From: a bacterium
GTDB taxonomy: Bacteria > Zhuqueibacterota > Zhuqueibacteria > Residuimicrobiales > Krinioviventaceae
NCBI GenBank assembly: GCA_963675755.2
Contig: CAXXMD010000003.1
Span: 1-64,000 of the forward strand
Reading direction: 5' to 3'
DNA: 64,000 nt
Shown here: one piece after another, positions 477 to 32,556 of the stretch
Layout: every line of letters begins with the position of its first letter
Numbering within the stretch: the first letter of the stretch is position 1
Program-made: the position numbers and the translations under genes
Notes under the pieces: generated by a model
What the model was told of the DNA's origin: nothing
Database searches by the model: none
The model's input: the letters and a program-made list of their open reading frames with translations, nothing else

Positions 477-2852
477 TCATTCATACCTCAATGCCTCCAC
501 AGGATTCTCTCGTGCAGCTTTTAACACATTGTACATTATTGGCAGCATTACAAAAAATAGCGACAAGGCTATTGACATCACAAACACCAAAACTCCAATT
601 TGGATATGATAGGCAAAGTTTTCTAACCATTTATTCATAACCAAAACCACAATCGGTATCGATAAAGCAATAGCAATACCTACCACAACGTGAAATTCTC
701 TAACCAAATACAAAGAGATATCTACCAGTGTTGCACCCAAAACTTTTCGAATACCAATTTCTTTTGTACGTCGTTCAACAATAAAAAATGTCAAACCAAA
801 CAAACCCAATATGGTTATTAGCAAAGAAATGAATGTAAACATTCTAACCATTTTATTAAAATTAAGCTCATCCTTGTAAAATAGCCCAACATGATCTTCA
901 AAAAAAGAATAACGAAATTCCTTGTCAGCAAACATTTCATCCCATTTTGCATTCATACTTTTTAAAATATCAGATTGTGCTCCTGAATCTATATTAACAA
1001 TCAATTGGTAATTGGAGCTATTGTCAAACCACACACACAAAGGAGCTATTTCGTCTTTTAACGTGTGCAAATTAAAATCATTTACCACACCAATAATATT
1101 CTCAAATTTATAATCCAGTATATTATCGACACCAATTTGTTTAAACGCAGTTTCATTAATTATTGCAGAGTTTTGGGAATCATCTACCCTGAACCCACGT
1201 CCTTGAATCAATTCAAGGCCCAGTGTCCTTATAAAATCCTCATCAGCGAACATACCATTTGCGATAAATTGTTGATCCGGTTGATCTTGAACTGCCATAT
1301 TAAAATTGCCGGATATCCTCACTGGCGGCATATCCTCCATCAGCGTTGCGCTGTTTACCCCAGGCATATTTAAAATTTCATTCTTGAAAAGCAGAGCACG
1401 TTGATGCGCATTTTTCGCTGCTTTTGAATAGCCCATTGCAGCAATATCCTCCGCAGAAGGCATATTCTCTATCAGTAAAAGATTGTTTTGATCAAATCCC
1501 ATATTTTTTGTTTGCGTATACACAAGCTGTTTATAAATCACAAAACTCGAAGCAGTCATCACCATAAAAACAAAGAGCTGGGCAACAACAAATCCTTTCC
1601 AAAATCCAGTTCGAGTACTGATTTTGCTAAATGTTGAATGGAATATTTGATTGGGTTGAATACGAGTCATATATAATGCAATAATAATCCCTGGTACCAT
1701 GCCTGCAAACAAGGCAAGCATTGTTATACCTGTAAAGAATCCCCAATTCCCATCCTTAAACAATGACAAATTAACACCTAAAAAATTATTCATTACAGGA
1801 AAAAGTAATTCTGCGACAATGAATGCAATGGGTAATACAAATACAATCAAAAGCAATGACTCGCCTGGAATGTAAGAAACAAGACGAATCGTGCTGGCCC
1901 CCATCATTTTTCGCAAACCAATTTCTTTTGTCTGTGTAAACACACGGGTAATAGCAAGAACAACATGATTGAAAATTGCCATGAACAAAACCAGCAATGC
2001 AACAAATGAAAAAATGTATAAATTTTCTTTATTACCTGTTTCAAAATTATTTTGGCCAATACCTCTTGAATTCAGATACATCGCGCTTAATGGCTGCACT
2101 AAACAAGATTTTGTGCGCTCTTTTTGTTGATGTGTTAGCACAAGCTCAAGGGCCTTGTTTTTAAATTCAACAAAGCTGGCATTTTTTTTCAATAACACAA
2201 ATGTGTTCAATTTATAATCATACCAGTCATCCGGAGGAGCGATTCCATCAAAAGCTGACAATCCGGATGCGATAAAATCTACTTTTATTGACGACTGTTT
2301 CGGCAAATCTTTAAACACGCCAGCCACATAAAACTCTAAATCTCCCCCTCGTTTTTTTACCTTTAACGGTTCCTTTATAGATTTTTTTCCAAAATATTTA
2401 TCATTCATGGATTCAGATAAAAAGATCATGGATTTATTTTCATCCAAAACTCGAAAATCACCGGAAATCACCTCAATACTTAACACATCGAAAAGATCAG
2501 CATCCGCATACCAGAAATTTCGCTCACGAATGGATTTTCCTTTATAAAATATAGACACATTTGATTTTTCCATTCTGAAAGCCGTTTCAACTTCCGGCAC
2601 TTGTTTTTTTAATGCATCAGCCAATGCAACAGGAGTGCGGGCAGACTGCTTCCCGGACAAATCATCCATTTGAATGATTCGATATATTCTGTTTTTTTCC
2701 TCATGAAACTGATCATATCCGGTTTCATATAGAACGTACAAAAGAATAACAAAACAGATAGAAAGACCCGCCACAAATCCAATCATATTTAAACCGGTAT
2801 ACATCTTGTTATGCATTAACTTGCGCCAAAACCTGCTAACAGTTCCTATCAT
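477..2852 (-). CDS. ABC transporter permease, duplicated MacB-PCD/FtsX architecture (array copy 13 in transcription order)
   Basis: 791 aa; YDQFH, two KEIG(L/I)RK motifs, DFNLHTL, C-terminal NPVEALRYE. Confidence 0.95.
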   Translation of the reverse strand: MIGTVSRFWRKLMHNKMYTGLNMIGFVAGLSICFVILLYVLYETGYDQFHEEKNRIYRIIQMDDLSGKQSARTPVALADALKKQVPEVETAFRMEKSNVSIFYKGKSIRERNFWYADADLFDVLSIEVISGDFRVLDENKSMIFLSESMNDKYFGKKSIKEPLKVKKRGGDLEFYVAGVFKDLPKQSSIKVDFIASGLSAFDGIAPPDDWYDYKLNTFVLLKKNASFVEFKNKALELVLTHQQKERTKSCLVQPLSAMYLNSRGIGQNNFETGNKENLYIFSFVALLVLFMAIFNHVVLAITRVFTQTKEIGLRKMMGASTIRLVSYIPGESLLLIVFVLPIAFIVAELLFPVMNNFLGVNLSLFKDGNWGFFTGITMLALFAGMVPGIIIALYMTRIQPNQIFHSTFSKISTRTGFWKGFVVAQLFVFMVMTASSFVIYKQLVYTQTKNMGFDQNNLLLIENMPSAEDIAAMGYSKAAKNAHQRALLFKNEILNMPGVNSATLMEDMPPVRISGNFNMAVQDQPDQQFIANGMFADEDFIRTLGLELIQGRGFRVDDSQNSAIINETAFKQIGVDNILDYKFENIIGVVNDFNLHTLKDEIAPLCVWFDNSSNYQLIVNIDSGAQSDILKSMNAKWDEMFADKEFRYSFFEDHVGLFYKDELNFNKMVRMFTFISLLITILGLFGLTFFIVERRTKEIGIRKVLGATLVDISLYLVREFHVVVGIAIALSIPIVVLVMNKWLENFAYHIQIGVLVFVMSIALSLFFVMLPIMYNVLKAARENPVEALRYE

Positions 2853-2946
2853 ACGTCCCCCTCTAATTTCAAATTTACATTCATTTTTTATTAAAATTCT
2901 TTTCTATAAATTCAAATCGATTCAGTATTTTTCAAGTAATGTCTAT

Positions 2947-2979
2947 TTACTGATTACTAATAACTGATAACTGACTACT
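2947..2979. repeat. 7-bp-periodic ACTGA-class arm
   Basis: ttactga-ttactaa-taactga-taactga-ctact, abutting the stop at 2980; only a remnant of the opposite arm (ttcagtatt, ~2921). Confidence 0.85.
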
Positions 2980-5391
2980 TTATTCATACCTCAACGTATC
3001 CACCGGATTGGTTTGTGCCGCCCGAAAAGCCTGTGTGGTTACCGTAAGCAAAGTGATGATCCAAACAACAATCAGCGGAAGCAAAAACAGCAATACATTC
3101 AGATCCATCTTTTGCACAAAATCATTCAGCCAGAGTTGGATCCCATAAATACCGGCAGGCAGCGCAACAATAAACGCAATACCAAGTAACAACAAGAAAT
3201 CTTTGGCAAACATGAATACAATTCCAGGAATATTGGCACCCAATACCTTACGAATACCAACCTCTTTGGTTCGCTGAACCGCACTGTATGCCGAAAGTCC
3301 CAAAATCCCCAAACAAGTCACCAGTACCGCAAGGATCGAAAACAATCCAATCACCTGACCAAACATTTGGTCAGCTTTATACTGTTGATCATAATATTCG
3401 TCCAGGAAATAGAAATCAAACGGATTCCCCGGGAAAAACTGGGCCCACAATTCCTCTACTTGTTTCATCGTCTGTGGAATGGATTTACCATCCAGATTCA
3501 GGGCAAATACTCCAAAATACGCAGTGGGATAATAGCGAAATATCTGAGGTTCAAAATCATCCTTGACTGTCTGCTGATGATAATTTTTCACCACACCAAT
3601 AATGGGATAAATCTTTTCCCAATAACTGACTTCACTCCCAACCGCTTCTTCCGCGGATTTGAATCCCATCCATTCTACAGCTTTTTCGTTCAGCATCAAT
3701 GCGCCCTTGTCTGACGAAAACTCCCGGGAAAATGGACGTCCCGCCACTATTTCCAAATCAAACATATCTATAAAATTAAAATCCACGCCTGTGATCATAT
3801 AATTTCGATTATGGGTCTGATCACTCCCCTTTTTCCGGATGCCGCCATTGTCCCAGAAAAACTGGCGTCCCGGCACCTCAGTCACAAAACATGCATCCGT
3901 CACACCGGATAAACGTTTGGCTTCGGTTTTAAAGGATTCAAACTTTTCTTCCTTACCTTCTTCTGCCACTACCCTGGGGACCTTGAACACCAACGTTTGA
4001 TTCATTGCAAAACCCAAATCCTGATTCCGCATAAACCGGATCTGGTTATAAATTGCAAATGTTCCCATTATTAATAGCAATGCAATAATGAACTGGGTTA
4101 ACAAAAGTACTTTGCGCAGTCCCATACCTCTGAACCCTGCACTGTTTTTTACTTTTAATACCTTTTGCGGCTTGAATGATGTGAGCAAAACAACGGGATA
4201 ACTTGCGGAGAACACAACTCCTGCAACAAATAAAATAGCCAGTCCAACCCAGAACCACATACGGTTCATTAATGAATACATATCCGGTATTCCGGTAAAA
4301 TGCTGAAATTGAGGTAAAACCAAAACAATCAAGACCAGTGCTGTCAATACGGACAATGCATTCACAATAACCGTCTCCAGCAAAAACTGGGCGCCCAAAT
4401 GTCTGCGCGATGCGCCAACAACCTTGCGTATACCCACCTCTTTTGCCCTGCTCATTGCCCTTGCTGTCGACAAATTGATATAATTGATCCACGCCATCAA
4501 AACAATAAAAACTGCAATAATAGACAAGATACGCACGGTATCCTGACTGCCATTCACTTTAAATTCCTGCAAATAATGCGATTTTAAATGTATATCTGCT
4601 AATGGTTGTAATTTTAAATAAACATGTACACCATATTTTTCAATCCATTCTTTAAACTCGTTTTCAACACTGTTCAAAATTTGTGATTGCAATTCCTGAA
4701 CATCTGTTCCCTTGGTCAGGCGTAAATAAGTAAAAAATCCGGTATACCCCCACGCCTCTTGCAATTCCTGTCCCTTTAAGGTTATCAGGTCCTTATATGC
4801 CAGCAATACATCACATTGGATATGCGAATTCTCGGGAAAATCTTTATAAACACCGGTTATTATATAACTATTGTCTTTGTCCACCTGAAACATTTTCCCT
4901 GTGGCTGGTTCATCTCCAAAATATTTTTTCGCAACCGAACTGGCAATCAATGCGGTTCCGGGTTTAACCAGAGCGCTGTCAAAAGTTCCGTTAACCAGAG
5001 AAAATGTAAAAACATCCAAAAGCTCCGGTTCAGCAAAAAACATAAACTCTTCGGTAAACTTTTTTTGCTCAAAAGACATGACCGCTTTATATCTGTACAA
5101 ACGCCCAATCTTTTCAATCTGCGGAAACTTTTCTTTAACAAAAGGAGCTCCGGGGGGACAACAAGAGGCAAACTGCACAATGGTGCCTTCATCAGCTGTC
5201 CGCTCATACCGTAAACGATAGATCTGTTCATAATCATTGTGAAATTTATCAAAACTGGTTTCATAATGGATATAATGAAAAATCAACAGGCACGAAACAA
5301 TGCCGATACTCAGGCCAATAATATTGAGCAATGTAAAAAATCTGGATTTTAATAAATTCCGAACCGCCACTCTAAAATAATTTTGAAACAT
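2980..5391 (-). CDS. ABC transporter permease, MacB/FtsX family
   Basis: 803 aa; SFDKFH, NYINLSTARAMSRAKEVGIRKVVGA, NPVDTLRYE. Confidence 0.95.
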   Translation of the reverse strand: MFQNYFRVAVRNLLKSRFFTLLNIIGLSIGIVSCLLIFHYIHYETSFDKFHNDYEQIYRLRYERTADEGTIVQFASCCPPGAPFVKEKFPQIEKIGRLYRYKAVMSFEQKKFTEEFMFFAEPELLDVFTFSLVNGTFDSALVKPGTALIASSVAKKYFGDEPATGKMFQVDKDNSYIITGVYKDFPENSHIQCDVLLAYKDLITLKGQELQEAWGYTGFFTYLRLTKGTDVQELQSQILNSVENEFKEWIEKYGVHVYLKLQPLADIHLKSHYLQEFKVNGSQDTVRILSIIAVFIVLMAWINYINLSTARAMSRAKEVGIRKVVGASRRHLGAQFLLETVIVNALSVLTALVLIVLVLPQFQHFTGIPDMYSLMNRMWFWVGLAILFVAGVVFSASYPVVLLTSFKPQKVLKVKNSAGFRGMGLRKVLLLTQFIIALLLIMGTFAIYNQIRFMRNQDLGFAMNQTLVFKVPRVVAEEGKEEKFESFKTEAKRLSGVTDACFVTEVPGRQFFWDNGGIRKKGSDQTHNRNYMITGVDFNFIDMFDLEIVAGRPFSREFSSDKGALMLNEKAVEWMGFKSAEEAVGSEVSYWEKIYPIIGVVKNYHQQTVKDDFEPQIFRYYPTAYFGVFALNLDGKSIPQTMKQVEELWAQFFPGNPFDFYFLDEYYDQQYKADQMFGQVIGLFSILAVLVTCLGILGLSAYSAVQRTKEVGIRKVLGANIPGIVFMFAKDFLLLLGIAFIVALPAGIYGIQLWLNDFVQKMDLNVLLFLLPLIVVWIITLLTVTTQAFRAAQTNPVDTLRYE

Positions 5392-5445
5392 TGTTATCCC
5401 TTTTAAATTTATTCAATTGAATATGCCATTCAACTTTAATTATTT

Positions 5446-5527
5446 CTAGTTTTCAGTCGTCAGTTACTAAATTACAACTATCTGTTTCGTTTTTTTACTG
5501 ACAACTAACTACTGATAACCGATTACT
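5446..5527. repeat. Inverted pair of 7-bp ACTGA-class arms (hairpin element)
   Basis: ctagttt-tcagtcg-tcagtta ... ttactga-caactaa-ctactga-taaccga-ttact, abutting the stop at 5528. Confidence 0.85.
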
Positions 5528-7876
5528 TTACTCAAACCTCAACGCATCTACCGGATTTGCATTTGCTGCCTTGACAGATTGCCAGCTCACAGTTAACACG
5601 GCAAAAGCAAAAGCCAGAATGCCCGCCAATAAAAATATCCATAAATTGAGATGGATCCGGTACACATAGCTTTGCAGCCATTTGTTCATCAAAAACCACG
5701 AAACCGGCCAGGCAATAATATTCGCAATCAGCACCCATTTCCCAAAATCAATAAAAGTTTTAAAAATAATACCGGACACCTCGGCTCCCAAAATTTTACG
5801 GATTCCAATCTCTTTGGTGCGCTGTTCATTTAAAAATGTCGACAAACCAAACAATCCCAGGCAAGAGACAAATACAGCAAGTATGGTGGACAAGAGGATT
5901 ATCTTTTGAGAAAATTCCTGTGTCTGGTTGAACTTGTGCGAAACATCACTCAAATATTGATAATTCAAGGGCCGTTCCGGACTGAACCGATCACACGTTT
6001 CGCGTATAAAACCTACTGTTTTGGTAATTTCTCTAATATCTTTTAATTCAGGGTTTATTTTTATAAACAGATATTTACTTGCTGCTGTATTTAATCCAAA
6101 TGCAAGGGGTTCGGGTTTTCCGGTTAATGTTTTATTATGATGAAAATCTTTAACAATTCCAACCAGCGTTATATAACGATCATTCACAAAAAAAGGAACG
6201 CCTGCTTTCATCTCCATACCTGCTGCCTTGATCGCTGCTTCATTTACAACCACAGCGCCTTTTGCATCATTGGGATATTCCGGGGAGAAATATCGTCCAT
6301 CTACCAATTCCAGATCAAACGTCTCAAGAAAATCATATCCGGTTTCTGTATAACACAATCGACGACTTTTTTGATCATTTACACCCCATTGAAAAAAAGA
6401 CCCGTTTAAAATTGAATTGGGAAGATTTGATGCGGTAGTCACAGTTGTAATCTGCGGATCCTGCAACAATTCCTGTTTCAGGGGCTGATAACTATTTTGA
6501 ATATCTCCATCCATTTGAACATAGATCACATTGCTTTCATTGACACCCAGGTTAAAACTTTTCACATATTTCACTTGAGAGCTTATCACAATCGCCATAA
6601 TCACAAAGCCAATCGAAAAAACAAATTGCACAACTATTAAAGTTTTTCGCAATCTTCCTCGGGCGGAAGATAAAGACTGTTGCTTGAATATCCTGACGGG
6701 TTGAAATCGAGATAAATACAAAGCAGGATATCCACCGGCAAGTAATCCTGCAATAACCAACAAACCTACAAATCCAATCCAAAATACAGGATCAGCAAGA
6801 TCGAGACTGATTGCCTTACCGGTCATTTGGTTAAATTTGTTTAATAAAAGACGTATAATTATAAGGGCGAGTACTCCCGCCATTCCGGTCAAGAGTAAAG
6901 ATTCACCTATAAACTGTTTCGCAATTTCGAACCGACTCGCCCCGGTCACCTTGCGTACACCTATTTCTCTTGCACGAACGGTAGCGCGTGCTGTAGCCAG
7001 ATTCATAAAATTAATACAGGCAATGGATAATATAATCAGGGCAATTAACGCAAGAATCAGATTGCGTGTTTCCCCTCCGGTATCAAACATATAGGTATCG
7101 TTAAAGGGCATCAATACAATCTCAAAAGATATAGTCTCCCCCTTTGAAAAAATTCGTTGACTGATCTTGTCAGATAAATCCTGGTAATCAATTCCGGCAT
7201 CCAGTAAAACATAGGTTAAATATTGACATGGGAAAAACGGAGTTCCTTCTATATCTTGCCCCAGCTTTTTTAAAAACTCCAGAGGCAACACATAGGTAAA
7301 GGTCCTGTATGCATTTTCAGGAAGGTCCTCAACAATACCGGTTACCTTGAAGTCAAATTTATTATCATAACGAATCACTTGCCCCAGAGCATTCTCATTA
7401 CCAAAATATTTTTTGGCCAATGATTCGGTAAGTACGATACTTTCAGGATCCTGCAACGCAGTTTCAGGATCACCGGAAATGAACGTATATGAAAAAACAT
7501 TAAAAATAGACGGGTCCGCGGAAATACCACCCGTCTCTAATATCCGGGTTTCACCAATTTTTATTACATGCGGGGCCATCAATCTGACTCGTACCGATTC
7601 TATGATTTCAGGATATTCGGATTTAAAAATATTTGCAATGGCGGGTGATACGGTAGACTGCAAGTTGGTATTTTCACCCTGTGTGCTTTTTAAATATGCC
7701 TGACACATTCTGTCCCGGTTTTCATGAAAACTGTCAACACTCAATTCATTCTGTATCCATAAAAGAATTAAAATCGAACAGCTCAATCCAATAGCCAGAC
7801 CAGCTACATTGATAAAAGAATAGGTCTTGTATTTCATTAAATTCCGAAAAACCGTTTTAAACAAATTCTTGATCAT
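5528..7876 (-). CDS. ABC transporter permease, MacB/FtsX family
   Basis: 782 aa; NFMNLATARATVRAREIGVRKVTGA, NPVDALRFE. Confidence 0.95.
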   Translation of the reverse strand: MIKNLFKTVFRNLMKYKTYSFINVAGLAIGLSCSILILLWIQNELSVDSFHENRDRMCQAYLKSTQGENTNLQSTVSPAIANIFKSEYPEIIESVRVRLMAPHVIKIGETRILETGGISADPSIFNVFSYTFISGDPETALQDPESIVLTESLAKKYFGNENALGQVIRYDNKFDFKVTGIVEDLPENAYRTFTYVLPLEFLKKLGQDIEGTPFFPCQYLTYVLLDAGIDYQDLSDKISQRIFSKGETISFEIVLMPFNDTYMFDTGGETRNLILALIALIILSIACINFMNLATARATVRAREIGVRKVTGASRFEIAKQFIGESLLLTGMAGVLALIIIRLLLNKFNQMTGKAISLDLADPVFWIGFVGLLVIAGLLAGGYPALYLSRFQPVRIFKQQSLSSARGRLRKTLIVVQFVFSIGFVIMAIVISSQVKYVKSFNLGVNESNVIYVQMDGDIQNSYQPLKQELLQDPQITTVTTASNLPNSILNGSFFQWGVNDQKSRRLCYTETGYDFLETFDLELVDGRYFSPEYPNDAKGAVVVNEAAIKAAGMEMKAGVPFFVNDRYITLVGIVKDFHHNKTLTGKPEPLAFGLNTAASKYLFIKINPELKDIREITKTVGFIRETCDRFSPERPLNYQYLSDVSHKFNQTQEFSQKIILLSTILAVFVSCLGLFGLSTFLNEQRTKEIGIRKILGAEVSGIIFKTFIDFGKWVLIANIIAWPVSWFLMNKWLQSYVYRIHLNLWIFLLAGILAFAFAVLTVSWQSVKAANANPVDALRFE

Positions 7877-7937
7877 TTTGTTAACCTCAATTCATAATAA
7901 CTAGATAACAACAAACATCTACCAGATAGCGATCTTA

Positions 7938-10298: not shown

Positions 10299-10350
10299 TT
10301 CTTGATGTTATTAGCATCCATCAACTTTTTTCTGGTTTCACTTCTTGCAT

Positions 10351-10374
10351 CGGTTCCTGAACTTGTCAAAGGAC
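10351..10374. repeat. Degenerate REP-like half element (CCCTTCGACAAGCTCAGG type)
   Basis: Minus strand GTCCTTTGACAAGTTCAGGAACCG, 3 nt after the stop at 10378; single copy, recognised by resemblance only. Confidence 0.45.
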
Positions 10375-10377
10375 ACC

Positions 10378-12768: not shown

Positions 12769-12810
12769 CTCTTTACCTGATAATTTTTGTTTTCAACTTT
12801 TGTTTAACAT

Positions 12811-12958
12811 TCTGTTTTCAGATATCAGGCATCAGTATTCAGAAAAAACATTCCCAATTACTGATCACTAACAACTGAAAACTGATAACCATCAAAAAAT
12901 GACAATAAGCTCAACTTTTCCAAATTCACTTCTTACGTTTCACGTCTGCCGTTTTACG
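12811..12958. repeat. Composite 7-bp repeat element: inverted ACTGA-class pair plus CGT-class arm
   Basis: tctgttt-tcagata-tcaggca-tcagtat-tcag (12811-12842); ttactga-tcactaa-caactga-aaactga-taacc (12858-12890); ttcactt-cttacgt-ttcacgt-ctgccgt-tttacg (12925-12958), abutting the stop. Confidence 0.88.
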
Positions 12959-17874: not shown

Positions 17875-17902
17875 TGATAGCTATTAGCTGACAGCTATCA
17901 GC
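17875..17902. repeat. 7-bp AGC-class repeat tract / hairpin
   Basis: tgatagc-tattagc-tgacagc-tatcagc; tgatagct and agctatca are reverse complements. Confidence 0.85.
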
Positions 17903-17906
17903 TTTA

Positions 17907-20291: not shown

Positions 20292-20325
20292 TCCTTAATT
20301 TCACAACTTTTAGCAAACAACTGGA

Positions 20326-20386
20326 ACTCGTTTCACGTCATTCGTCTGCCGTTTCGCAGAAAACTGATCACTGACTACTGACAACT
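20326..20386. repeat. CGT-class arm plus ACTGA-class arm (7-bp periodic)
   Basis: actcgt-ttcacgt-cattcgt-ctgccgt-ttcgc followed by aaactga-tcactga-ctactga-caact. Confidence 0.85.
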
Positions 20387-20387
20387 T

Positions 20388-22724: not shown

Positions 22725-22741
22725 TTCACACCTTTTTTATT

Positions 22742-22830
22742 CTGGTTTTCAGTGATCAGTATTCAGTCATCAGTTTCCAAGACACCGGGCCTATTCTTTT
22801 GATTACTGACAACTGATTACTGACAACTGT
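22742..22830. repeat. Inverted pair of 7-bp ACTGA-class arms (hairpin element)
   Basis: ctggttt-tcagtga-tcagtat-tcagtca-tcagttt ... ttactga-caactga-ttactga-caactgt. Confidence 0.9.
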
Positions 22831-22835
22831 CAATT

Positions 22836-25262
22836 TTATTCATACCTCAACGCGTCCACCGGATCAGCAGAAGCCGCCTTGACTGTATAGCCGCTGGTTG
22901 TCAGTAACGCAATAACCAACGCTAATACACCTGCCAACAGAAACGGCCAGATTCCGGGATCAACCCGGTACGCAAATCCCTGCAACCATTTATTCATGGC
23001 ATACCAGGAAGCAGGCCAGGCAAATATATTAGCAAGCAGCACCCACTTTATAAAATCACCAGACAAATGCAAAACTATACCCGGTACAGATGCGCCCAGT
23101 ACTTTTCTTAATCCGATTTCCTTTACCCGTTGTTCAGCATTGAAAATTGCAAGACCCAGCAACCCGACACAGGATATCAGGATCGCGAATCCGGTAAATA
23201 TATTGAAAACCATGGCAAACTGTTCATCACGGATATATTGCTGCTGTACCTGCTCATCCAGAAAAAAATATTCAAAATTACGGCCCGGGAACAATTGCTG
23301 GTGTTTGCTTTTCACAAAACCGAGAGTTTCTGTCAAGTTGCTGGTCTGTACGGTCAAAACGATATACCGGAATGGATTTTGGCCGTTTGCCTTAAACCAC
23401 TCGGGTGACAAAGCAAAATACAATGGCCTGACTATAGTATGCAGCGATTCATAATGTACATCTTTGCTCACGCCGATGATCGTTAACGGTGTTTCCGTCT
23501 CGTATCCGGGATTTATCGCTTTACCCAGCGCCTCTTCATTACTGTTAAAACCAAACGCCTTGCGGGCAGTCTCATTAATGACTACACTATGATAAATATC
23601 AGCAGGACTTGAAGAAAACGTCCGCCCGGCCAGAATCGGGATGTCGAAAATTTGCAAATAATCATTGTCGATCATGCTGAATTCCATGGGCTGCAATTTG
23701 TTATCGGATTGCCCTACAAGCCACACATCAAATGATAACAATCCACCGACTCCCGGAATGGCCCTTGCCATACAGGCATTGGAAATAGACGGATTGTTTA
23801 TAAATTCCTGCTTGGCTTGCTCATAGAAATCGAGTCCAGCGGAACGTTCGGCCCTTATGGGTATAATCAGCTTTTGCTCACTGTTGAACCCCATATCCAT
23901 ATTTCTTACAAAATGCATCTGTCTGAACACCGTGAGTGTTCCTGCAATCAAAGCAATAGACAATGCAAACTGCATAATAACCAGCAGCTTGCGCACGGAA
24001 AACGTCCCGCTGTCACTGAATTTCATTTTTTTAAAAACCTGTTGCGGTGTAAAAGACGCATATATCCATACCGGGTATGCCGCACAGATCAGAGATACCA
24101 GTAATATCAATCCAAATGCGCTTATAACAAATCCCGGGTTCAGCCATTCAAAATGCTGAAATTCCTTGCCGGTAAGATTGTTGAAAACCGGAATCGAAAC
24201 TTCTGACATTATGATTGCCAGCGCAAGCGAGATTAATACCATTATCATAATCTCAAATAACAATTGACGGATGATATGCGATTTTCCTGCTCCAACCACC
24301 TTGCGCACAGCCACTTCCTTTCCACGTCTCAAAGAACGACTTGTGGTCAGGTTGATAAAATTAATGCCTGCGATCAGAACAATGATAAGCGCTGTTAGAT
24401 TGAATACATATACGTAGAAAGCATTGCCGTGGACAGGGGCTTCACTTTCAAGCTCAGAATAGAGATAAATATCGCGCATGGGCTGCAGGAAATAGGTTTT
24501 TTCCATATTATCATTCGTGAGTTCTTCACCGATATAATTGTTTGCAATATGGGCAATACTTTTTTCAAACTCAGCCGCATCAATCCCCGGTTTTAATTTT
24601 ATAAAAGTATAGATCGAGATTCGTATGGTCCAGTCCGAAAAAAACCGGGCCTTTTCTACAGGCTTTAACGGTGCAAGAATATCAAACTGCAAATGACTGT
24701 TTCGGGGTGTATCTATAACCACACCGGTAACTGTTACCTCATTATTATTGATCCACAATACATGGCCTAAAGGATTTGTATCCCCAAAATACTTTTTCGC
24801 TATCCTTTCTGAAATCACTATGGATTTGCTGCCCTGAAATGCATCCTCCGCCGAGCCATAGACAAATGGCAGAGTAAAAATATCAAAAAAATCATCATCA
24901 ACGATAAAGAAATTCTTTTCGTTGAACTTCTGCTCTGGTCCCACCTGTATAACCTTGCCCGGCTGCGGCAATATCCGCGCTATATGCTCAATCTGGGGAT
25001 AATTCTCGCGCAATGCTACTGCCAACGCACCGGTAACACTGGCATGACTATGCTCGGCAATGGGAGATGTTTCTGTAACAGCTACTCGGTATATACGATC
25101 CACATCGTCATGATAAGCATCAAAGCTCTTTTCATCCTGTATCCACATAAAGATAAGGATCGCACATGCCATGCTGACTGCCAGTCCGGCAACATTGATA
25201 ATGGATATTACCCTGTTTCTGAGCAGGTTTCGAATTGCGATTTTAAAATAACTAAGCAGCAT
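22836..25262 (-). CDS. ABC transporter permease, MacB/FtsX family
   Basis: 808 aa; NFINLTTSRSLRRGKEVAVRKVVGA, DPVDALRYE. Confidence 0.95.
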   Translation of the reverse strand: MLLSYFKIAIRNLLRNRVISIINVAGLAVSMACAILIFMWIQDEKSFDAYHDDVDRIYRVAVTETSPIAEHSHASVTGALAVALRENYPQIEHIARILPQPGKVIQVGPEQKFNEKNFFIVDDDFFDIFTLPFVYGSAEDAFQGSKSIVISERIAKKYFGDTNPLGHVLWINNNEVTVTGVVIDTPRNSHLQFDILAPLKPVEKARFFSDWTIRISIYTFIKLKPGIDAAEFEKSIAHIANNYIGEELTNDNMEKTYFLQPMRDIYLYSELESEAPVHGNAFYVYVFNLTALIIVLIAGINFINLTTSRSLRRGKEVAVRKVVGAGKSHIIRQLLFEIMIMVLISLALAIIMSEVSIPVFNNLTGKEFQHFEWLNPGFVISAFGLILLVSLICAAYPVWIYASFTPQQVFKKMKFSDSGTFSVRKLLVIMQFALSIALIAGTLTVFRQMHFVRNMDMGFNSEQKLIIPIRAERSAGLDFYEQAKQEFINNPSISNACMARAIPGVGGLLSFDVWLVGQSDNKLQPMEFSMIDNDYLQIFDIPILAGRTFSSSPADIYHSVVINETARKAFGFNSNEEALGKAINPGYETETPLTIIGVSKDVHYESLHTIVRPLYFALSPEWFKANGQNPFRYIVLTVQTSNLTETLGFVKSKHQQLFPGRNFEYFFLDEQVQQQYIRDEQFAMVFNIFTGFAILISCVGLLGLAIFNAEQRVKEIGLRKVLGASVPGIVLHLSGDFIKWVLLANIFAWPASWYAMNKWLQGFAYRVDPGIWPFLLAGVLALVIALLTTSGYTVKAASADPVDALRYE

Positions 25263-25295
25263 TTAACACTCTTTTTTAATTTTATTTTTTCAATC

Positions 25296-25371
25296 AAAGC
25301 TATCAGCTATTAGCTTTATATTTTTCACAGTCAACTCATACTGACAGCTAATAGCTTATAGCTAAAAGCTG
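25296..25371. repeat. Inverted pair of 7-bp AGC-class arms ('empty' hairpin element)
   Basis: aaagcta-tcagcta-ttagctt ... ctgacag-ctaatag-cttatag-ctaaaag-ctg; same arm style as the pair flanking 33503..33862. Confidence 0.88.
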
Positions 25372-25374
25372 TTT

Positions 25375-27729
25375 TCACTCATACCTCAACGCTTTCACCG
25401 GATCAGCTGTTGCCGCTTTGATCACCTGTAAACTCACGGTCAGCATGGCAATCAAAAGCGCTGCCGTACCTGCCAGCAGGAATGGCCATACGGTAATATT
25501 GATCCGGTAGGCAAAATTCTCAAGCCACTTGTGCATGGCAAACCAGGCTATGGGCCAGGCAAAAAGGTTAGCATAAACTATACATCGCACAAAATCAGAA
25601 ATTATCATAAGAATAATTTCTTGTACCGATGATCCTAAAACTTTACGTATTCCAATTTCCCTTGTCCGCCGTTCAACGGTAAATAAAGTAAGCCCCAGCA
25701 AACCAAGCACAGAAATAAAAATTGACAAACCGGATATATAAGAAAAAATTTCATTCTGCTGAATTTCAGATCGATACAGATTATCAAAATCTTTGTCATA
25801 AAAAGAGTAACTAAATTCAGTTTGAAAAATATCATTCCAGGCATCGGAAAGATATTCAATGGAATCGTGAATCGCGTTTGGATCAACCCGCACAAGCAGG
25901 AACTTGCATAATTCCGGGTAAAGATAGATTGCCATCGGTTCGATTTTGTGATGTAAAGATTCAAAGTTGAAATCTTTTACAACACCTGCGATTTCACCCC
26001 ATTCAATAATTTTCATAGGTTCACCGATTGGATTGTCCCACCCCAATTGTTTCACGGCAGATTCATTCAATATATAAGTCTTGTGAGACCGCCGGTAGGG
26101 TTCCCCGGAAAAGGTACCACCCTGTTTCAATTCAAGACCAAACGTGTTTATAAAATCATAATCCACACTGATCCAGTTGATATATTTCATCTTGTTTGCG
26201 GCCTCGCCTTTAAAAATTACGTTCTGGTTAAAACCGGGCTCGCTGGGCAAATAAGATGTTGCTGTTACACCTTTTATACTGGCATTTTTAAGTATCTCTG
26301 TTTTAAAAACATCATATTTTTGCTGATCCTGATTCTCATATATGGGAAGAACAATTAAATGGTCCTTATCATATCCCAGCTTTTTGGAACTGGTATATTG
26401 CATTTGGTGTCGCATTACAAACATGCAAACCATAAAGAGTATCGTGATAGTGAATTGCAATACCACCAAAGCACCTCTAAAACCGAATGTATGGGGAACA
26501 GCTTCTTTATTTATATTCGAGATAGGTTTGAGCTTGGAAAGATAAAACGCGGGATAAATCCCCACAACACTCCCAACCAAAACAGATGCAAATAAAAGTA
26601 CGGTCATAAATTTAAAGTTGTATAAATAGTGCAAAGATATCTCTTTACCTGTGTAATGATTAAATATAGGTAAAATATAGGTTGCCAAAACCAATGAAAC
26701 AATTAAAGAGACAATCATTAAAAACATGGTTTCTGCCACAAACTGAATCGACAATTGATGCCGTTTTGCGCCTATAACTTTACGTAATCCTATCTCTTTT
26801 TCTTTGGTCATTATTTGCAAAGTGGTCATGTTTATATAATTGAAACAGGCCAAGATCAGTATCAAAACAGAAATTCCGATAAAAATATAGATATGTGAAC
26901 TGTCTTTGTCAGTTGGCAAATCATTAATCGGATCAATATCTATATGTGTTTTTAATAGAGGCTGCAGCAAAAATTTACTGTCCTGATTATGCGCATATAG
27001 CAAACCCGAAAGTTTTTTTTCAACCTGTTCAACATTGCTATTTTTGTTTAATAAAACATAAGTCGGATAATTATAGGCGCTCCAGCTCAGGTTCCCTTCA
27101 TTGCCTTTTGTATATAGCTTTTCAAAAGAGGCCAATAGCTCATACTGAAATCGTGAATTTGAAGGCGGGTCATCTACAACATGAGTAACCGTATAATCGT
27201 GGGTAAACGGCTTTGTACCAACGGTTATGACTTGATCGATCGGATCATAATCGCCAAAAAGTTTGTGAGCAACAGATTGGGTAATGACAACAGAGTTGAT
27301 ATTTCTAAAAACTGTACCAGCGTCTCCTTTTACGAGTTTTACATCGAATATGTCAAAATAGCTTTTATCAACCAATAGAAATGTATTTTTTTGAATTTCT
27401 CTATTTTGATTTGTGATGGTATATCTTTGCCCGTCAGCAAACCTTACAATGGTTTCAATCTCCGGAATACTTTTGGCAATTTCTAAAGCGATTGGAGCAG
27501 GCGCATTTGGATGATATTTCGTAGCTCCCTGAGAGTCATATTGCAAAACCAGACGATAAATGTTATCGACTTTTTCATGAAATGCATCATATCCAAGATC
27601 ATCTTGGACATATAAAGCGATCAAAATGCAGGAACACAATCCTATGGTAAAACCTATAATGCTGATAGCGGAATAAGTTTTAAATTTCCATAAATAACGG
27701 ATAGAATATTTAAGATTAGTGAAAAACAT
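25375..27729 (-). CDS. ABC transporter permease, MacB/FtsX family
   Basis: Start MFFTNL at 27729, 1 nt after the upstream stop (ORF extends to 27738); DPVKALRYE. Confidence 0.95.
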   Translation of the reverse strand: MFFTNLKYSIRYLWKFKTYSAISIIGFTIGLCSCILIALYVQDDLGYDAFHEKVDNIYRLVLQYDSQGATKYHPNAPAPIALEIAKSIPEIETIVRFADGQRYTITNQNREIQKNTFLLVDKSYFDIFDVKLVKGDAGTVFRNINSVVITQSVAHKLFGDYDPIDQVITVGTKPFTHDYTVTHVVDDPPSNSRFQYELLASFEKLYTKGNEGNLSWSAYNYPTYVLLNKNSNVEQVEKKLSGLLYAHNQDSKFLLQPLLKTHIDIDPINDLPTDKDSSHIYIFIGISVLILILACFNYINMTTLQIMTKEKEIGLRKVIGAKRHQLSIQFVAETMFLMIVSLIVSLVLATYILPIFNHYTGKEISLHYLYNFKFMTVLLFASVLVGSVVGIYPAFYLSKLKPISNINKEAVPHTFGFRGALVVLQFTITILFMVCMFVMRHQMQYTSSKKLGYDKDHLIVLPIYENQDQQKYDVFKTEILKNASIKGVTATSYLPSEPGFNQNVIFKGEAANKMKYINWISVDYDFINTFGLELKQGGTFSGEPYRRSHKTYILNESAVKQLGWDNPIGEPMKIIEWGEIAGVVKDFNFESLHHKIEPMAIYLYPELCKFLLVRVDPNAIHDSIEYLSDAWNDIFQTEFSYSFYDKDFDNLYRSEIQQNEIFSYISGLSIFISVLGLLGLTLFTVERRTREIGIRKVLGSSVQEIILMIISDFVRCIVYANLFAWPIAWFAMHKWLENFAYRINITVWPFLLAGTAALLIAMLTVSLQVIKAATADPVKALRYE
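25378..25559. repeat. 182-bp direct repeat, copy 1 (partner 27734-27915)
   Basis: Manual alignment: 6 mismatches in 182 bp, perfect core 25421-25540. Confidence 0.92.
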
Positions 27730-27730
27730 A

Positions 27731-30100
27731 TTACTCATACCTCAACGCATCGACCGGATCAGCCGTTGCCGCTTTAATCACCTGTAAACTCACGGTCAGC
27801 ATGGCAATCAAAAGCGCTGCCGTACCTGCCAGCAGGAATGGCCATACGGTAATATTGATCCGGTAGGCAAAATTCTCAAGCCACTTGTGCATGGCATACC
27901 AGGCTATGGGCCAGGAAATCACACTTGAAATCAGAATACGATTTACAAATCCACTCAGTAATAATCTTAGAATACTGCTCAATGAAGCACCCAGCACTTT
28001 ACGTACACCAATCTCTTTGGTTCGTTTTTCAGCCATGAACGAGGCAAATCCAAATAATCCCAGGCACGAGATAAATATGGCAAACACGGTAAATCCGTTA
28101 AAAAGGAGCTTAATCCGCTGCTCCAATTGGTACATGCGTTCATATCGTTCATCTAAAAAGCTGTATTCGAGGGGATATCCAGTAACGCGTCTGTCCCAAA
28201 CACTTTTAATAGACCGGATACTCTCATCAATCCTGTCACCGGTTCGCACCAAAAGAGTAAATCCCATAGCGCTGACAGGCTCTTCTGTCATGGGTAAAAA
28301 CACCTGTGGTTCAACGCTTTTGTGCAGCGAGTGAAAATTGGCGTCTTTGATCACACCTACAATGGTTCCCGGATTGTCATTTCCATAAACCGAGATCGAT
28401 TTCCCGATGGGGTCTGTAATACCCATCCGGCTCAAACCGGTTTCATTGATAATGACTGCGTTTTGAACATCACCAGGATAGTCTGGTGAAAAACTCCTAC
28501 CGAACAATAGTTCTACATTCAGGTCCGATAAATAGGATTCGTTGATCCAGTTGACTTCCCATATTACGTCCTCATCCGGATCTTTGCCCTGCCAGTTTAC
28601 GGATTGGGTAGCACGGGCAATATGCTCGGGAGAACAGTTTTTCACAGCCACACCGGCAATTCCGGGCTGACGCAGCAGTTCATCCCGCATGGATTCGTAA
28701 TCCACATCAACACCCCGGTTTACTTCAACGCAAAGAATATTCTCTTTGTTGAAACCCAAAGATTTGTTCTGCAGATAATGTACCTGCTCATTTACAACCA
28801 GCATACCGGTTATTAACGCAATGGATAAGGAAAACTGAACGATAGTGAGTACATGACGGAACCCAAAAGATTTTCCCGCTTTGATTTTCTGTTTAAATGC
28901 CGATTGCGGTTTAATTGCGGAAAGATAAAATGCAGGATATGCTCCCGCAATCAATGCGGTAATAATTAAAACTCCCACCAATGAAATCAAAAATTCCGGA
29001 TTGGTTAAATTTAAAGCACAAACAGAACTTGACAATTGCGCATAAATGGGACATCCTATAACTGCAAGTCCCAGTGCAAGGATAAAGGCCGCAAATGTAA
29101 TTAAAAACGATTCACCCATAAACTGCATTACAATGTCTTTTCTGGCTGCGCCCATTACCTTTTTCAAGCCAATCTCTTTGGCACGATTGGTAAACCGGGC
29201 CGTGGATATGCTCATATAGTTGATACAGGCTATGAGCAAAATGAAAACAGCAATGACAGAAAATATATAAATGTAATTTCGATTCACGGTGCTACTGTCA
29301 TCATTGAACAAACCGGGATTCAAATGTATGGACTGTAATGGCTGTAATTCAAAACTCTTGTTTGTATTCGGATTCGTGTTATTTTTCTTATATAACGAAG
29401 TAATATTACCGGCAACCGCTTGTGGATTAGACTGCTCATCTATCAGTACATAGGTATATGTAGGGAATCGGTTCCAGCGAGTTAGCAGATCGTTACGTTT
29501 TTCAGCTGCCTCAAAAGAGGTCAAAAAACGAAAACCCATATGCGAGTTTTCCGGCCAGTCCCTGATTACCCCGGCAACTGTCATCAATACTGAATTCACT
29601 TCTATTTGCTGACCCAGGGGATTATTGTCACCAAAATATTTTTTTGCCGCGCTTTCAGTAAAAACAATCCTGTCCGGTGCGGACAATGCACTCGCGCCAT
29701 CTCCGGCTAAAAATTCAACTGAAAAAATATCAAAAAAGGATGGGTCTGCTACCGCCACCCCATCTTCAAACATGGCTTCATTGTTATACCGGAATAATGT
29801 ATTTACCCCGCTTCTGAACCGGGTGGCTTTTAATACCTGCGGCAATTCCTGTTCAAGCTCCGGCGCCATAGGACCGGGAGTAGAGGCCCATTTGGCAGCA
29901 TTATTATGAAAATCGGATATAACCCGGTAAATCCGGTCCGATTGATCATTAAATCCATCATAACTCAGCTCATGCTGCACCCACTGCAAAATAAATATCA
30001 CACAAGCCAGACTCACCGCCAATCCGGTTATATTTAAAATGGAATATTGTTTATGTTTTAACAGATTTCGTATCGCAATTTTCAGATAATTAATTAACAT
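27731..30100 (-). CDS. ABC transporter permease, MacB/FtsX family
   Basis: 789 aa; MLINYLKIAIRNL, AGGAG RBS, DPVDALRYE. Confidence 0.95.
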   Translation of the reverse strand: MLINYLKIAIRNLLKHKQYSILNITGLAVSLACVIFILQWVQHELSYDGFNDQSDRIYRVISDFHNNAAKWASTPGPMAPELEQELPQVLKATRFRSGVNTLFRYNNEAMFEDGVAVADPSFFDIFSVEFLAGDGASALSAPDRIVFTESAAKKYFGDNNPLGQQIEVNSVLMTVAGVIRDWPENSHMGFRFLTSFEAAEKRNDLLTRWNRFPTYTYVLIDEQSNPQAVAGNITSLYKKNNTNPNTNKSFELQPLQSIHLNPGLFNDDSSTVNRNYIYIFSVIAVFILLIACINYMSISTARFTNRAKEIGLKKVMGAARKDIVMQFMGESFLITFAAFILALGLAVIGCPIYAQLSSSVCALNLTNPEFLISLVGVLIITALIAGAYPAFYLSAIKPQSAFKQKIKAGKSFGFRHVLTIVQFSLSIALITGMLVVNEQVHYLQNKSLGFNKENILCVEVNRGVDVDYESMRDELLRQPGIAGVAVKNCSPEHIARATQSVNWQGKDPDEDVIWEVNWINESYLSDLNVELLFGRSFSPDYPGDVQNAVIINETGLSRMGITDPIGKSISVYGNDNPGTIVGVIKDANFHSLHKSVEPQVFLPMTEEPVSAMGFTLLVRTGDRIDESIRSIKSVWDRRVTGYPLEYSFLDERYERMYQLEQRIKLLFNGFTVFAIFISCLGLFGFASFMAEKRTKEIGVRKVLGASLSSILRLLLSGFVNRILISSVISWPIAWYAMHKWLENFAYRINITVWPFLLAGTAALLIAMLTVSLQVIKAATADPVDALRYE
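27734..27915. repeat. 182-bp direct repeat, copy 2
   Basis: Offset 2356 bp from copy 1; encodes the near-identical permease C-terminus. Confidence 0.92.
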
Positions 30101-30160
30101 TGAATCTCCTGGAATGATGAAAACACTCTTTTTTTATCTATACTAAATTATTATTTGTAT

Positions 30161-30240
30161 CCAGTCATCAGTAATCAGTCGTCAGTTTACAGCAACAAGT
30201 TCCGTTATTACTGATAACTGAATACTGATAACCGAAAACT
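30161..30240. repeat. Inverted pair of 7-bp ACTGA-class arms (hairpin element)
   Basis: ccagtca-tcagtaa-tcagtcg-tcagttt ... ttactga-taactga-atactga-taaccga-aaact, abutting the stop at 30241. Confidence 0.9.
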
Positions 30241-32556
30241 TTATTCATACCTCAACGCCTCGACTGGATTCGCTGTAGCCGTCTTGATAACCTGCCAACT
30301 GGTTGTCATTAATGCAACGGATATGGCTGCAACACCCGAGATAGCGAATATCCACCAGCCCAGCTCAGTACGATAAGCAAAGCTCTCAAGCCATTTGTTC
30401 ATGATATACCAGCTCACCGGTACAGCGATAATAAAAGCAATAGCAGTCCATTTCAGCATGTCCCGGTTAAGCAGGACTGTTATCTCCCGCACAGATGCAC
30501 CGTTCACCTTGCGAATGCCTACCTCTTTTGCACGACGACGAGTCGTAAACTGAACCACACCAAAAGTACCCATAGCTGTGATCAGCAGGGCAATTACAGA
30601 AAAAATCCGGATTGCGAATCCCAGTCTTTCTTCAGATTTATACATGGCATCATACCATTCGTCATAAAAAGAATATTCTAATACAAATTCAGGACATACC
30701 TCGCCCCAAACGTTCTTGATATAATCCAAAGTACCGGAAATATTATCAGGCGCAATTCGCAAAGAAAGCCAGGTATAATAGCTGTCCTGGTCATAAGCAA
30801 AGAATACCGGTCCAAGCGTTTTGTACATATTCTTTGTGTGAAAATCTTTAACAACACCAATAACATCATTACCGTTTATTTTTTTACCCTCAATCGACTC
30901 CCAATTCACCAGTTTTCTGGCAGATTCATTAATAATAATGACATTGTTTTTCTCTGTAGTATTAAAATTTCTTCCTTCAATGACTGGCACATCAAACACA
31001 TTGAAAAAATCTGTATCCACCAAAAACATGGAAACACTCTGGTCCCAGGTCCCCAGCTCCTTTGCCTCATTCCAACCGCAAGACATGTATACTGCACCGG
31101 GTCCGCTGTTTGAACAGGTAACATGATATACTTGCGGAGATTCTATAATTTTCTGTTTCAACAATGGGAGTTTATCTTTGATCCGCCATGAAGTTTCAAT
31201 TTTGACCAGACAATCTTTATCAAATCCCCAATCCATATTTTTAACATGCTTCATCTGTAGACCGATCACTATCAATGCCGTGATCAAAATTATACTAACC
31301 GTATACTGCACGGTCAGTAATCCCGACTTGATCTTGAGCGCATTACCGTCTACATTGCGGAACATGGAGAGAACAGAGTAACGCGATGCCAGTATCGCAG
31401 GGAACAATCCCGCCAACACTGAGATCAGGATCAAGCCCGCAGGAATCAACAGAACCGTCGGCATAGAGTATATATAATTCATATCAAAAGATTTATTGAC
31501 AATGGACTCAAACAAGGGCTTGGTCAATCCGGACAATAAAATAGCTGCTAAAAGTGATATGGTGCCAATCAAAACAGATTCCAAAATAAATTGAAAAAAG
31601 ATGGCTTTACTTCCAGCACCCACAGTTTTCTTGGTACCAATCTCTTTTATCCTTGTCATATACTGCGCTGTAAATAATACAACAAAATTTAAAATCGAGA
31701 TCAACAGAACCAACAGGGCAATTGCACCTAGAATCCGGATCAACCTCAAATTGGCATGCATTAAATGGCTGTTGTCCCTGACATCACTAAAATAAGAGTC
31801 TTTCAGCGGCATCAGGCTTACCGCTTCTTTAACCATATTATGCTCAACCAAATGCGCGGACAGTTTATCATTAACTGCCGTAACATCACTGCCAGGCTCA
31901 AGCAGCACAAAATATCGGTTAAAGTATATAATCTTGTCACCATCTGAATAACTGTTTACTACAGATTTCAGATCTCTGTGAATAATTGTTTTTGGCTGAA
32001 AGCTTGAATTCTCTGGCAGGGATTTGATTACAGCACTCACGGTCAAATCATTTTTATGATAAACGGTTACCGGCTCACCAACCGGGTTCCGCTCTCCAAA
32101 TATTTTTTGTGCAATTTCTTCAGTTAAAATAATAGAATTCATATCGCTCAGAGCAGTCTCTTTGTTACCATATACAAAATCCACATCAAAAATATCAAAG
32201 AATGATGGTTCGGTATGCAGAATTTGATTGACCTTGGTTGAATGCAGATTATATGTCAGTGCTCCCCGAAAATTAATAAAATAGTTATATCGGCATACAT
32301 TTTCAATTTCAGGGAAATCATAGGTCAGATAATCAATTGCATCTTCATTGATATCGCTCTCGCCATCATCTTTGATCATCCGATAAATACGGTCGACTTT
32401 GCTGAAACTCTTGTCATACGACAATTCATTAAACACAAAAGCGGATAACAGCAGAACCACTGTCAGGCTCAGCGTAAATCCTGATATGGTAATGACCGAA
32501 AATGTCTTGTTCCTGATCAAATTGCGATAAAACAACCGAAAAAAATGGATCATCAT
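30241..32556 (-). CDS. ABC transporter permease, MacB/FtsX family (first of the array in transcription order)
   Basis: Start MMIHFF at 32556 (GGGAG upstream; ORF extends to 32583); RRAKEVGIRKVNGA, NPVEALRYE. Confidence 0.95.
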   Translation of the reverse strand: MMIHFFRLFYRNLIRNKTFSVITISGFTLSLTVVLLLSAFVFNELSYDKSFSKVDRIYRMIKDDGESDINEDAIDYLTYDFPEIENVCRYNYFINFRGALTYNLHSTKVNQILHTEPSFFDIFDVDFVYGNKETALSDMNSIILTEEIAQKIFGERNPVGEPVTVYHKNDLTVSAVIKSLPENSSFQPKTIIHRDLKSVVNSYSDGDKIIYFNRYFVLLEPGSDVTAVNDKLSAHLVEHNMVKEAVSLMPLKDSYFSDVRDNSHLMHANLRLIRILGAIALLVLLISILNFVVLFTAQYMTRIKEIGTKKTVGAGSKAIFFQFILESVLIGTISLLAAILLSGLTKPLFESIVNKSFDMNYIYSMPTVLLIPAGLILISVLAGLFPAILASRYSVLSMFRNVDGNALKIKSGLLTVQYTVSIILITALIVIGLQMKHVKNMDWGFDKDCLVKIETSWRIKDKLPLLKQKIIESPQVYHVTCSNSGPGAVYMSCGWNEAKELGTWDQSVSMFLVDTDFFNVFDVPVIEGRNFNTTEKNNVIIINESARKLVNWESIEGKKINGNDVIGVVKDFHTKNMYKTLGPVFFAYDQDSYYTWLSLRIAPDNISGTLDYIKNVWGEVCPEFVLEYSFYDEWYDAMYKSEERLGFAIRIFSVIALLITAMGTFGVVQFTTRRRAKEVGIRKVNGASVREITVLLNRDMLKWTAIAFIIAVPVSWYIMNKWLESFAYRTELGWWIFAISGVAAISVALMTTSWQVIKTATANPVEALRYE

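Follow-up and report, generated by a model that had tools for sequence, protein, structure and literature searches.

The last 18 nucleotides of 11 of 13 duplicated permease genes, arranged in one long minus-strand operon of a bacterial assembly (GCA_963675755.2), are identical or nearly so, down to the choice of synonymous codons, in genes whose bodies have diverged widely. The operon lies at the start of the 64,000-nt stretch analyzed here (contig CAXXMD010000003.1, positions 1 to 64,000 of the forward strand; below, the window). A selected nucleotide-level signal at these cistron ends is real; it is strongest in the genus of the analyzed genome (genus g1) and looser in related arrays. The motif represents a nearly fixed, genus-specific form of a pressure that is also present in other arrays of the family and, more weakly, in 236 homologues elsewhere. 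On the sequence comparisons described below, the ends may be best read as a G-rich, C-poor, Shine-Dalgarno (SD)-like element acting on the mRNA at each internal cistron junction, possibly through contact with the ribosome, a reading to which we give a probability of about 40%. Comparisons were made with a relative of the same genus (G001) and with other arrays of the family (G003, G004, G014, G017, and G022); genes were approximated as open reading frames (ORFs) from the first ATG, and the relatives used in these comparisons are not independent.

The motif, RCGTTGAGGTATGARTRR, comprises the last five codons and the stop codon of a permease gene. A search of the window at up to two mismatches returned 11 matches, all on the minus strand, eight of them exact and three with one change, where 0.01 were expected from shuffled sequence and none of 100 shuffles reached 11. 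All 11 are ends of array genes. The 13 permeases have 771-808 amino acids with two MacB_PCD/FtsX halves each, and their pairwise amino acid identity is 24-38% (median 31%). Leucine is spelled TTG in every motif-bearing gene and also in the exceptional end at 10378 (12 of 13 genes), and arginine is spelled AGG in 10, with AGA in the gene at 12959. The 11-mer TTGAGGTATGA occurs nine times in the array and twice elsewhere in the genome. An earlier note on this DNA had described the positions of these ends, the eight exact and three one-change copies, the TTG and AGG codons (11 and 10 of 11 genes), the divergent gene bodies, and two exceptional ends followed by no heptamer arm, and all of this was found to be correct. 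One of these exceptions, at 10378, has an end (GCT TTG CGC TAT GA) identical to that of a solitary half-size permease on another contig of the same genome (C2:14386-14412), which may reflect micro-conversion or chance.

Codon bias and chance were both ruled out as causes by genome and array codon usage and by the ranking of alignment columns. Among 2767 long ORFs of the genome, AGG makes up 6.8% of arginine codons and TTG 26.3% of leucine codons; inside the array genes the shares are 10.9% and 34.8%. The probability of at least 10 AGG in 12 genes is 1.3e-8 and that of at least 12 TTG in 13 genes is 2.8e-5, with genes treated as independent, which is fair because silent sites are saturated (over whole genes, same-codon pairs among same-residue pairs occur at 1.07 times expectation). 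In the terminal leucine column, 66 of 78 pairs share a codon vs. 19.0 expected, and in the arginine column 45 of 66 vs. 11.8. No other of the 867 alignment columns is as codon-conserved as these two, and the last 12 codons contain four of the top six. AGG is used by none of the nine homologues outside the array, in the same genome, that have arginine at that place. Codon bias and equal use in solitary permeases were the two explanations that the earlier note had thought could dispose of its observation; with the former excluded and AGG absent from the non-array homologues, the observation therefore stands, and the nucleotide-level signal that it proposed is supported by codon usage and column statistics as well as by the SD-tetramer and composition tests given below.

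The fixed silent sites form a contiguous run: the third base of the alanine or threonine codon (G in 11 of 13 genes), positions 1 and 3 of leucine (T at position 1 in 11 of 11, P = 0.004), positions 1 and 3 of arginine, and the third base of tyrosine. Silent sites on both flanks are free (third base of valine 16 vs. 15.9, codon -7 11 vs. 13.1, glutamate 36 vs. 43.2), as is the stop codon, all three stops occurring among the gene ends. In nine orthologue pairs between the analyzed genome and G001, same-residue leucine, arginine, and alanine codons of the gene bodies differ in 30-32% of cases, whereas the terminal leucine codon differs in none of nine and the arginine codon in one of eight (jointly 1 of 17 vs. 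about 5.3 expected, P = 0.016); the terminal valine codon differs in five of eight and that of glutamate in four of nine. Although the sample is small, this comparison points to continuing constraint. A tree built from 72 permeases of eight arrays does not unite the genes of the analyzed genome but interleaves them with those of other genera, and their nearest relatives elsewhere use other leucine and arginine codons; the clade of the gene at 5528 (TTG AGG), for instance, has CTC AGA, TTA CGT, and TTA AGA. Given this interleaving and the differing codons of the relatives, the paralogues are ancient, and their common ending was acquired or retained within the lineage of the genus.

The fixed codons spell GAGGT, ending 5 nt before the stop codon and complementary to ACCTC in the tail of the 16S rRNA of the same genome, GGATCACCTCCTTTCT. 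SD sequences are in use in this genome: G reaches 47% at position -9, and GGAG precedes 25.6% of 2766 long-ORF starts vs. 2.6% in a control window. Typical Bacteroidota, unlike this genome, are not known to make clear use of SD sequences, and its SD signal contrasts with 209 SD-less permease starts in typical Bacteroidota loci; the genome also carries type-9-secretion sorting tails, DUF3575, and multihaem cytochromes. The tetramers GGAG or GAGG were counted in the last nine codons, with the protein held fixed and codons drawn from the usage of each array. They were found in 10 of 13 genes of the analyzed array (expected 1.38) and in nine of 11 in G001 (0.9), and also in five of 11 in G004 (0.47), six of 13 in G014 (2.62), seven of nine in G003a (2.9), four of six in G003b (1.24), three of five in G017 (1.02), and one of four in G022 (0.19). 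Pooled, the arrays outside genus g1 have a tetramer in 26 of 48 genes (expected 7.9). For comparison, the last 27 nt contain one in 10.8% of the long ORFs outside the array, and in 8% of those whose next start is 41-300 nt away. Genus g1 places the site at -10 as TTG AGG, and other genera mostly at -19/-18 as GTG GAG GCG. Of the 125 genomes of the class, 48 have an end of the form YTR-AGG-TAT-GAR-stop, mostly with TTG AGG; when two unpublished genomes are left out, the count is 46 of 123.

The same codons can be described by their composition. The series GCG/ACG, TTG, AGG, and TAT is the spelling of the tail A/T-L-R-Y-E with the most G and the least C. Measured against synonymous shuffles of the last nine codons, the z-scores of the analyzed array are +8.3 for G and -4.9 for C. 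They are +9.6 and -7.7 for the other arrays of the family, and +9.7 and -12.9 for a broad set made up of 236 homologues at 80 loci (L029-L108) in other genomes; a control block at codons 40-32 upstream stays within |z| of 3.8, and for the non-array genes of the analyzed genome the per-gene G excess is -0.01. For the broad set, the excess depends on the junction, being -0.05 per gene where the next gene is at most 30 nt away and +1.33 at 31-300 nt. The spacers of the array have a GC skew of +0.31 vs. +0.10 for 1215 other co-directional spacers (P = 5e-4), and the skew profile is highest at -25..0. Within the broad set, serine at codon -5 is AGY in 72% (35% in gene bodies), leucine is TTR in 63% (39%), and proline at codon -8 ends in G in 57%.

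Several results weigh against an SD-like element read by the ribosome. With the counts of both G and C fixed, the tetramer excess shrinks to 10 vs. 7.1 in the analyzed array and 26 vs. 21.0 in the other family arrays (z about 2), which means that composition and SD-likeness are confounded and not cleanly separable. G is not maximized at the third positions of valine and glutamate in the analyzed array. The distance of the site from the stop varies by array (-19/-18 vs. -10), and no mechanism that needs an exact register fits them all. Pairing with the anti-SD accounts for GAGGU only, and leaves the T at leucine position 1, the G at the alanine/threonine third position, and TAT unexplained. In the broad sample, loci without SD use (0 of 209 starts) still have tetramer ends in 53 of 215 genes, while SD-using loci outside the family have them in one of 14; a terminal SD-like bias that tracks the SD use of the host is thus not supported in that sample.

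Rho prefers C-rich, G-poor RNA. If composition alone were under selection, G-rich, C-poor ends and spacers would keep Rho off the untranslated junctions of a long operon, the identical 13-mer would simply be the one way to spell A/T-L-R-Y with maximal G and minimal C, and GAGG would arise as a by-product. All six constrained silent sites of the array are indeed max-G or min-C choices, the z-scores of G and C equal or exceed those of the tetramers in all three gene sets, and fixing both counts removes most of the tetramer excess; the confinement of the broad-set G excess to spaced junctions and the skew of the array spacers, with its peak at the gene ends, favor the same explanation. A diffuse compositional pressure, however, should not fix the rarest arginine codon in 10 of 12 genes and yet leave the third positions of valine and glutamate and the stop codons free. 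The other family arrays do not avoid C at leucine position 1, asparagine, or tyrosine, and with the G count alone fixed the tetramer excess remains strong in the analyzed array (10 vs. 3.7, sd 1.5) and in G001 (9 vs. 2.3, sd 1.2). We regard composition alone as an unlikely explanation. That the motif is a classical SD for the permease gene that follows, coupling translation at each junction, is highly improbable. The earlier note had offered it as one of two possibilities, and part of it stood: SD sequences are used, GAGGT pairs with the 16S tail, the tetramers are enriched throughout the family, and at 27731->27729 the spacing of 9 nt fits. Genome-wide, moreover, GGAG or GAGG lies in the last 27 nt of 19% of genes whose next start is at most 15 nt away vs. 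8-10% of the others. The spacing did not stand. From stop to next permease start the distances in the array are 140, 1, 112, 111, 96, 93, 79, 190, 79, 61, 136, and 127 nt, and only one of the 12 junctions has a start 4-12 nt after the element. Because the other starts are 61-190 nt away, and most downstream genes have an SD-like sequence of their own 5-13 nt before the start, classical coupling fits 27731->27729 only; the silent sites of the motif are conserved between the analyzed genome and G001 even at junctions with long spacers. The array thus resembles known coupling, in which the upstream gene carries an SD in its 3' end, in having a 4-5 nt complement of the 16S tail in its silent last codons, but differs in that the element is enriched where no start follows and the next gene has its own SD-like sequence.

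Two further explanations take the exact word as the object of selection or of copying. A recognition site of 10-13 nt (G TTG AGG TAT GA), bound by an operon-specific protein or a small RNA or acting as an RNA-polymerase pause, would explain why the constrained bases form one unbroken island extending beyond the anti-SD match (the G of the alanine/threonine codon, the T of leucine) and why TTGAGGTATGA is so concentrated in the array. The elemental pause follows the rule G(-10), Y(-1), G(+1), which we take to fit the bases of the motif around the boundary of the tyrosine and glutamate codons (10 nt before, 1 before, and 1 after). No partner complementary over at least 8 nt was found in the operon RNA except one match inside a gene, an Rfam search gave no match (its sole hit, to CrcZ, scored 19 bits, below the threshold of 95), no factor emerged as a candidate, and the other family arrays lack the exact word yet have the G-rich, SD-like bias; such a site seems improbable to us. 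We hold the same low opinion of recombination, whether micro gene conversion keeping the copies alike or a crossover site for the gain, loss, and shuffling of permease cassettes. The arrays of the analyzed genome and G001 are 86-95% identical, with three rearrangements between them. In G001 the genes 25375-27738 and 22836-25262 are missing, with a crossover inside the motif, at GATCCGGT....GCGTTGAGGTATGA; a different paralogue stands in place of the gene 477-2852 with its spacers, and homology stops exactly at the stop of gene 2980; and the gene 12959-15379 is missing, with a crossover in conserved N-terminal codons. The adjacent, otherwise very different genes at 25375 and 27731 share a near-identical final stretch of ~190 nt (25375-25565 and 27731-27920, minus strand) that runs up to the stop and has the appearance of a recent tract of conversion or recombination. 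When 28 of the 32 analyzed arrays are pooled, gene bodies have a same-codon ratio of 1.08 and the last five codons one of 1.46. In G014 (L016+L017), behind the gene that stops at joined coordinate 17812, a relic of a second gene end (…GAG GCG TTG AGG TAT GAA TGA) stands 35 nt past the real stop, probably left by a deleted paralogue. All of this is favorable to recombination, the third, N-terminal crossover excepted. A conversion tract, however, should have homogenized the silent sites that flank the 10-13 nt core, and these are free; together with nearest orthologues that lie in other genera and use other codons, they rule out a simple gene-conversion tract. Nor does conversion predict the same G-rich, SD-like bias in independent arrays (G004, G014, G003a, G003b, G017) with different exact sequences. 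The motif can act as microhomology for deletions, but breakpoints at the only shared 14-mer are expected whatever conserves it, and leave the sharing itself unexplained. All copies are direct repeats, with no reverse complement in the window at up to two mismatches, and Pfam scans of 16 window ORFs revealed no recombinase gene (four Y1_Tnp transposase-like genes lie elsewhere in the genome). An attC-like cassette boundary of an integron would differ in both respects, since the array motif has no inverse core and no complement of at least 8 nt in the intergenic regions, and no recombinase gene was seen among the ORFs beside the array. Of the other possibility raised by the earlier note, a crossover or insertion site coupled to the heptamer arms, what survives is that one of the three crossovers lies inside the motif, with another breakpoint exactly at the stop of a motif-bearing gene and one N-terminal; the arms proved to be uncoupled from the motif and no inverse copy exists.

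The SD-like element proposed here also invites comparison with the programmed +1 frameshift site of RF2 (prfB), where an SD-like element is followed by a 3-nt spacer, a P-site codon, and an in-frame stop. Nine array genes have this geometry (GAGG, TAT, GAR, stop), and in the gene at 5528 the spacer is TTT. The array differs in that its P-site GAR cannot re-pair in the +1 frame and in that the +1 frames past the stop are short and unconserved; only at 27731 does the +1 frame reach the next permease. A small ORF starting at the ATG within TATGA, which in other arrays has GGAGG 9 nt upstream, was rejected: tyrosine is TAC in four of nine G003a genes, and in the analyzed array the spacing is 1 nt.

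The features of the operon and the 13 gene ends are listed in Table 1. The first 35 kb of the window form a single co-directional minus-strand block. The organization is that of ADOP (TIGR03434) arrays: adaptor and ATPase genes come first, then numerous divergent double-FtsX permeases and another ATPase, together with a sigma-54 two-component pair. The TIGR03434 model matches over its full length, but the three permeases tested score 268.8, 310.2, and 284.7 bits, far under the curated cut-off of 622.3, and because of these scores they are ADOP-like rather than members by the curated rule. After the second ATPase, G001 has a 14th permease, which lacks the motif, ends TCT ATA AAG TAT GAA TAA, and precedes a canonical terminator. 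The same gene end sits at the end of contig C2 of the analyzed genome (C2:2448894-2449404), and the array runs on across the contig break into a second ATPase and a 14th permease; the assembly probably broke within this repeat-rich operon. No sigma-54-like site was found at the permease junctions, and sigma-70 promoter-like and terminator-like sites at the junctions were not above shuffles. The word AAAGTTG occurs in seven of the 13 spacers and the longer AAGTTGA, which shares GTTGA with the gene-end motif, in five; five copies of A[AG]GTTG[AT] are found 24-45 nt upstream of a permease start. A gene for a 119-amino acid 23S_rRNA_IVP four-helix-bundle protein (33503-33862, minus strand; Pfam E = 1.3e-41) separates the adaptor gene from that of the ATPase; it is bordered on both sides by heptamer arms of the AGCT type and resembles an inserted element.

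Table 1. Gene ends and other features of the permease operon (coordinates of the window)
Feature	Coordinates	Strand	Remarks
Second ABC ATPase gene, start only	1..384	-	runs off the contig
ADOP-like MacB_PCD/FtsX permease array, 13 duplicated genes	477..32583	-	junctions 1-190 nt
Motif, 1 change, GCA TTG AGG TAT GAA TGA	477..494	-	last permease before second ATPase gene
Motif, exact, ACG TTG AGG TAT GAA TAA	2980..2997	-	
Motif, 1 change, Phe TTT replaces Tyr	5528..5545	-	
Exception, ACG CTG AAA TAT GAA TAG (Lys)	7938..7955	-	no SD-like core, no arm; identical in G001 orthologue
Exception, GCT TTG CGC TAT GAG TGA	10378..10395	-	no arm; G001 orthologue has GCA TTG AGG
Motif, 1 change, AGA replaces AGG	12959..12976	-	
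Motif, exact	15423..15440	-	
Motif, exact	17907..17924	-	
Motif, exact	20388..20405	-	
Motif, exact	22836..22853	-	one partner of the G001 two-gene deletion crossover
Motif, exact	25375..25392	-	
Motif, exact	27731..27748	-	GAGGT 9 nt before next ATG (27729); other partner of the G001 deletion crossover
Motif, exact	30241..30258	-	second GAGG at -18 (GAG GCG)
ABC ATPase gene	32722..33411	-	end without motif, then a heptamer-arm hairpin of the same kind
HlyD-type periplasmic adaptor gene	33974..35224	-	first gene of the operon
Sigma-54 promoter-like site	35262..35279	-	38-55 nt before adaptor start; only intergenic match of its kind in the operon
Sigma-54 activator (response regulator) and histidine kinase genes	35379..38172	+	divergent from the operon

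Ten of the 13 array genes are followed, starting 3-12 nt past the stop, by hairpins formed of heptamer-periodic arms with 4-nt cores (CAGT/ACTG, AGCT, ACGT). A coupling of these arms with the motif was ruled out. Arms or hairpins begin 3-26 nt past stops genome-wide, in 37 clusters of which 11 are in the operon, and the clusters outside it follow unrelated gene ends that do not resemble the motif; within the operon, the ATPase gene has an arm and no motif. The gene at 27731 has the motif and no arm, because the next gene begins 1 nt after its stop; three motif-bearing genes of G001 likewise have no arm directly after the stop, and in G014 arms stand behind genes with quite different end codons. 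In the folding energy of the 70 nt past the stop, genes with an SD-like end do not differ from those without one in the analyzed genome and G001 (-12.9 vs. -10.7 kcal/mol, P = 0.37), in the other family arrays (P = 0.91), or in the broad set (P = 0.16). A second dense patch of heptamers lies at C2:2082662-2107926, behind ORFs of about 1140 amino acids, and other genera of the family (G003, G014) have similar arms. Ribosome termination structures (RTS), hairpins placed after stop codons, are reported to be depleted behind mid-operon genes, with no general sequence motif found (PMC7518266). The array is like them in its hairpins a few nucleotides past the stop, with the motif immediately upstream, and unlike them in that its hairpins follow internal genes and its conserved element lies inside the coding end, unlinked to folding energy.

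If the gene ends are SD-like elements acting on the mRNA, the following course of events may be envisaged. A single sigma-54 promoter would serve one operon consisting of the adaptor, the ATPase, 13 ADOP-like permeases, the second ATPase, and more. At each junction GAGGU could be contacted by the anti-SD of a ribosome that is terminating or has just been released, leading to pausing or retention there, and at 27731->27729 the same element would double as the SD of the next gene. The surrounding composition, richer in G than in C, would make a poor loading site for Rho. Ribosome retention and Rho avoidance might then together keep a transcript of about 35 kb expressed across 13 or more junctions. 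Tentatively, and with more doubt than attaches to the element itself, ADOP-like permease arrays might carry, in the silent sites at their gene ends, a dedicated "cistron-end box" that holds the terminating ribosome or its 30S subunit and keeps Rho off, allowing one sigma-54 promoter to serve at least 13 large membrane-protein cistrons over hairpin-filled spacers.

No account of gene-end codon conservation in these arrays was found in the literature searched, and a cistron-end box, if true, would be an undescribed form of punctuation within operons. Silent sites are usually taken as free, and here the rarest arginine codon is fixed at one and the same place in ten ancient paralogues, with the same bias in related arrays. 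The ADOP-like MacB/FtsX transporter family thus provides an example, open to experiment, of a regulatory signal concealed in the final codons of genes. Should the element prove only compositional, it would still be a useful marker of operon-internal junctions in these genomes. If it controls the behavior of ribosomes or the survival of the transcript, it would call for caution in codon-optimizing such genes and would help to explain how very long operons of membrane proteins are evenly expressed.

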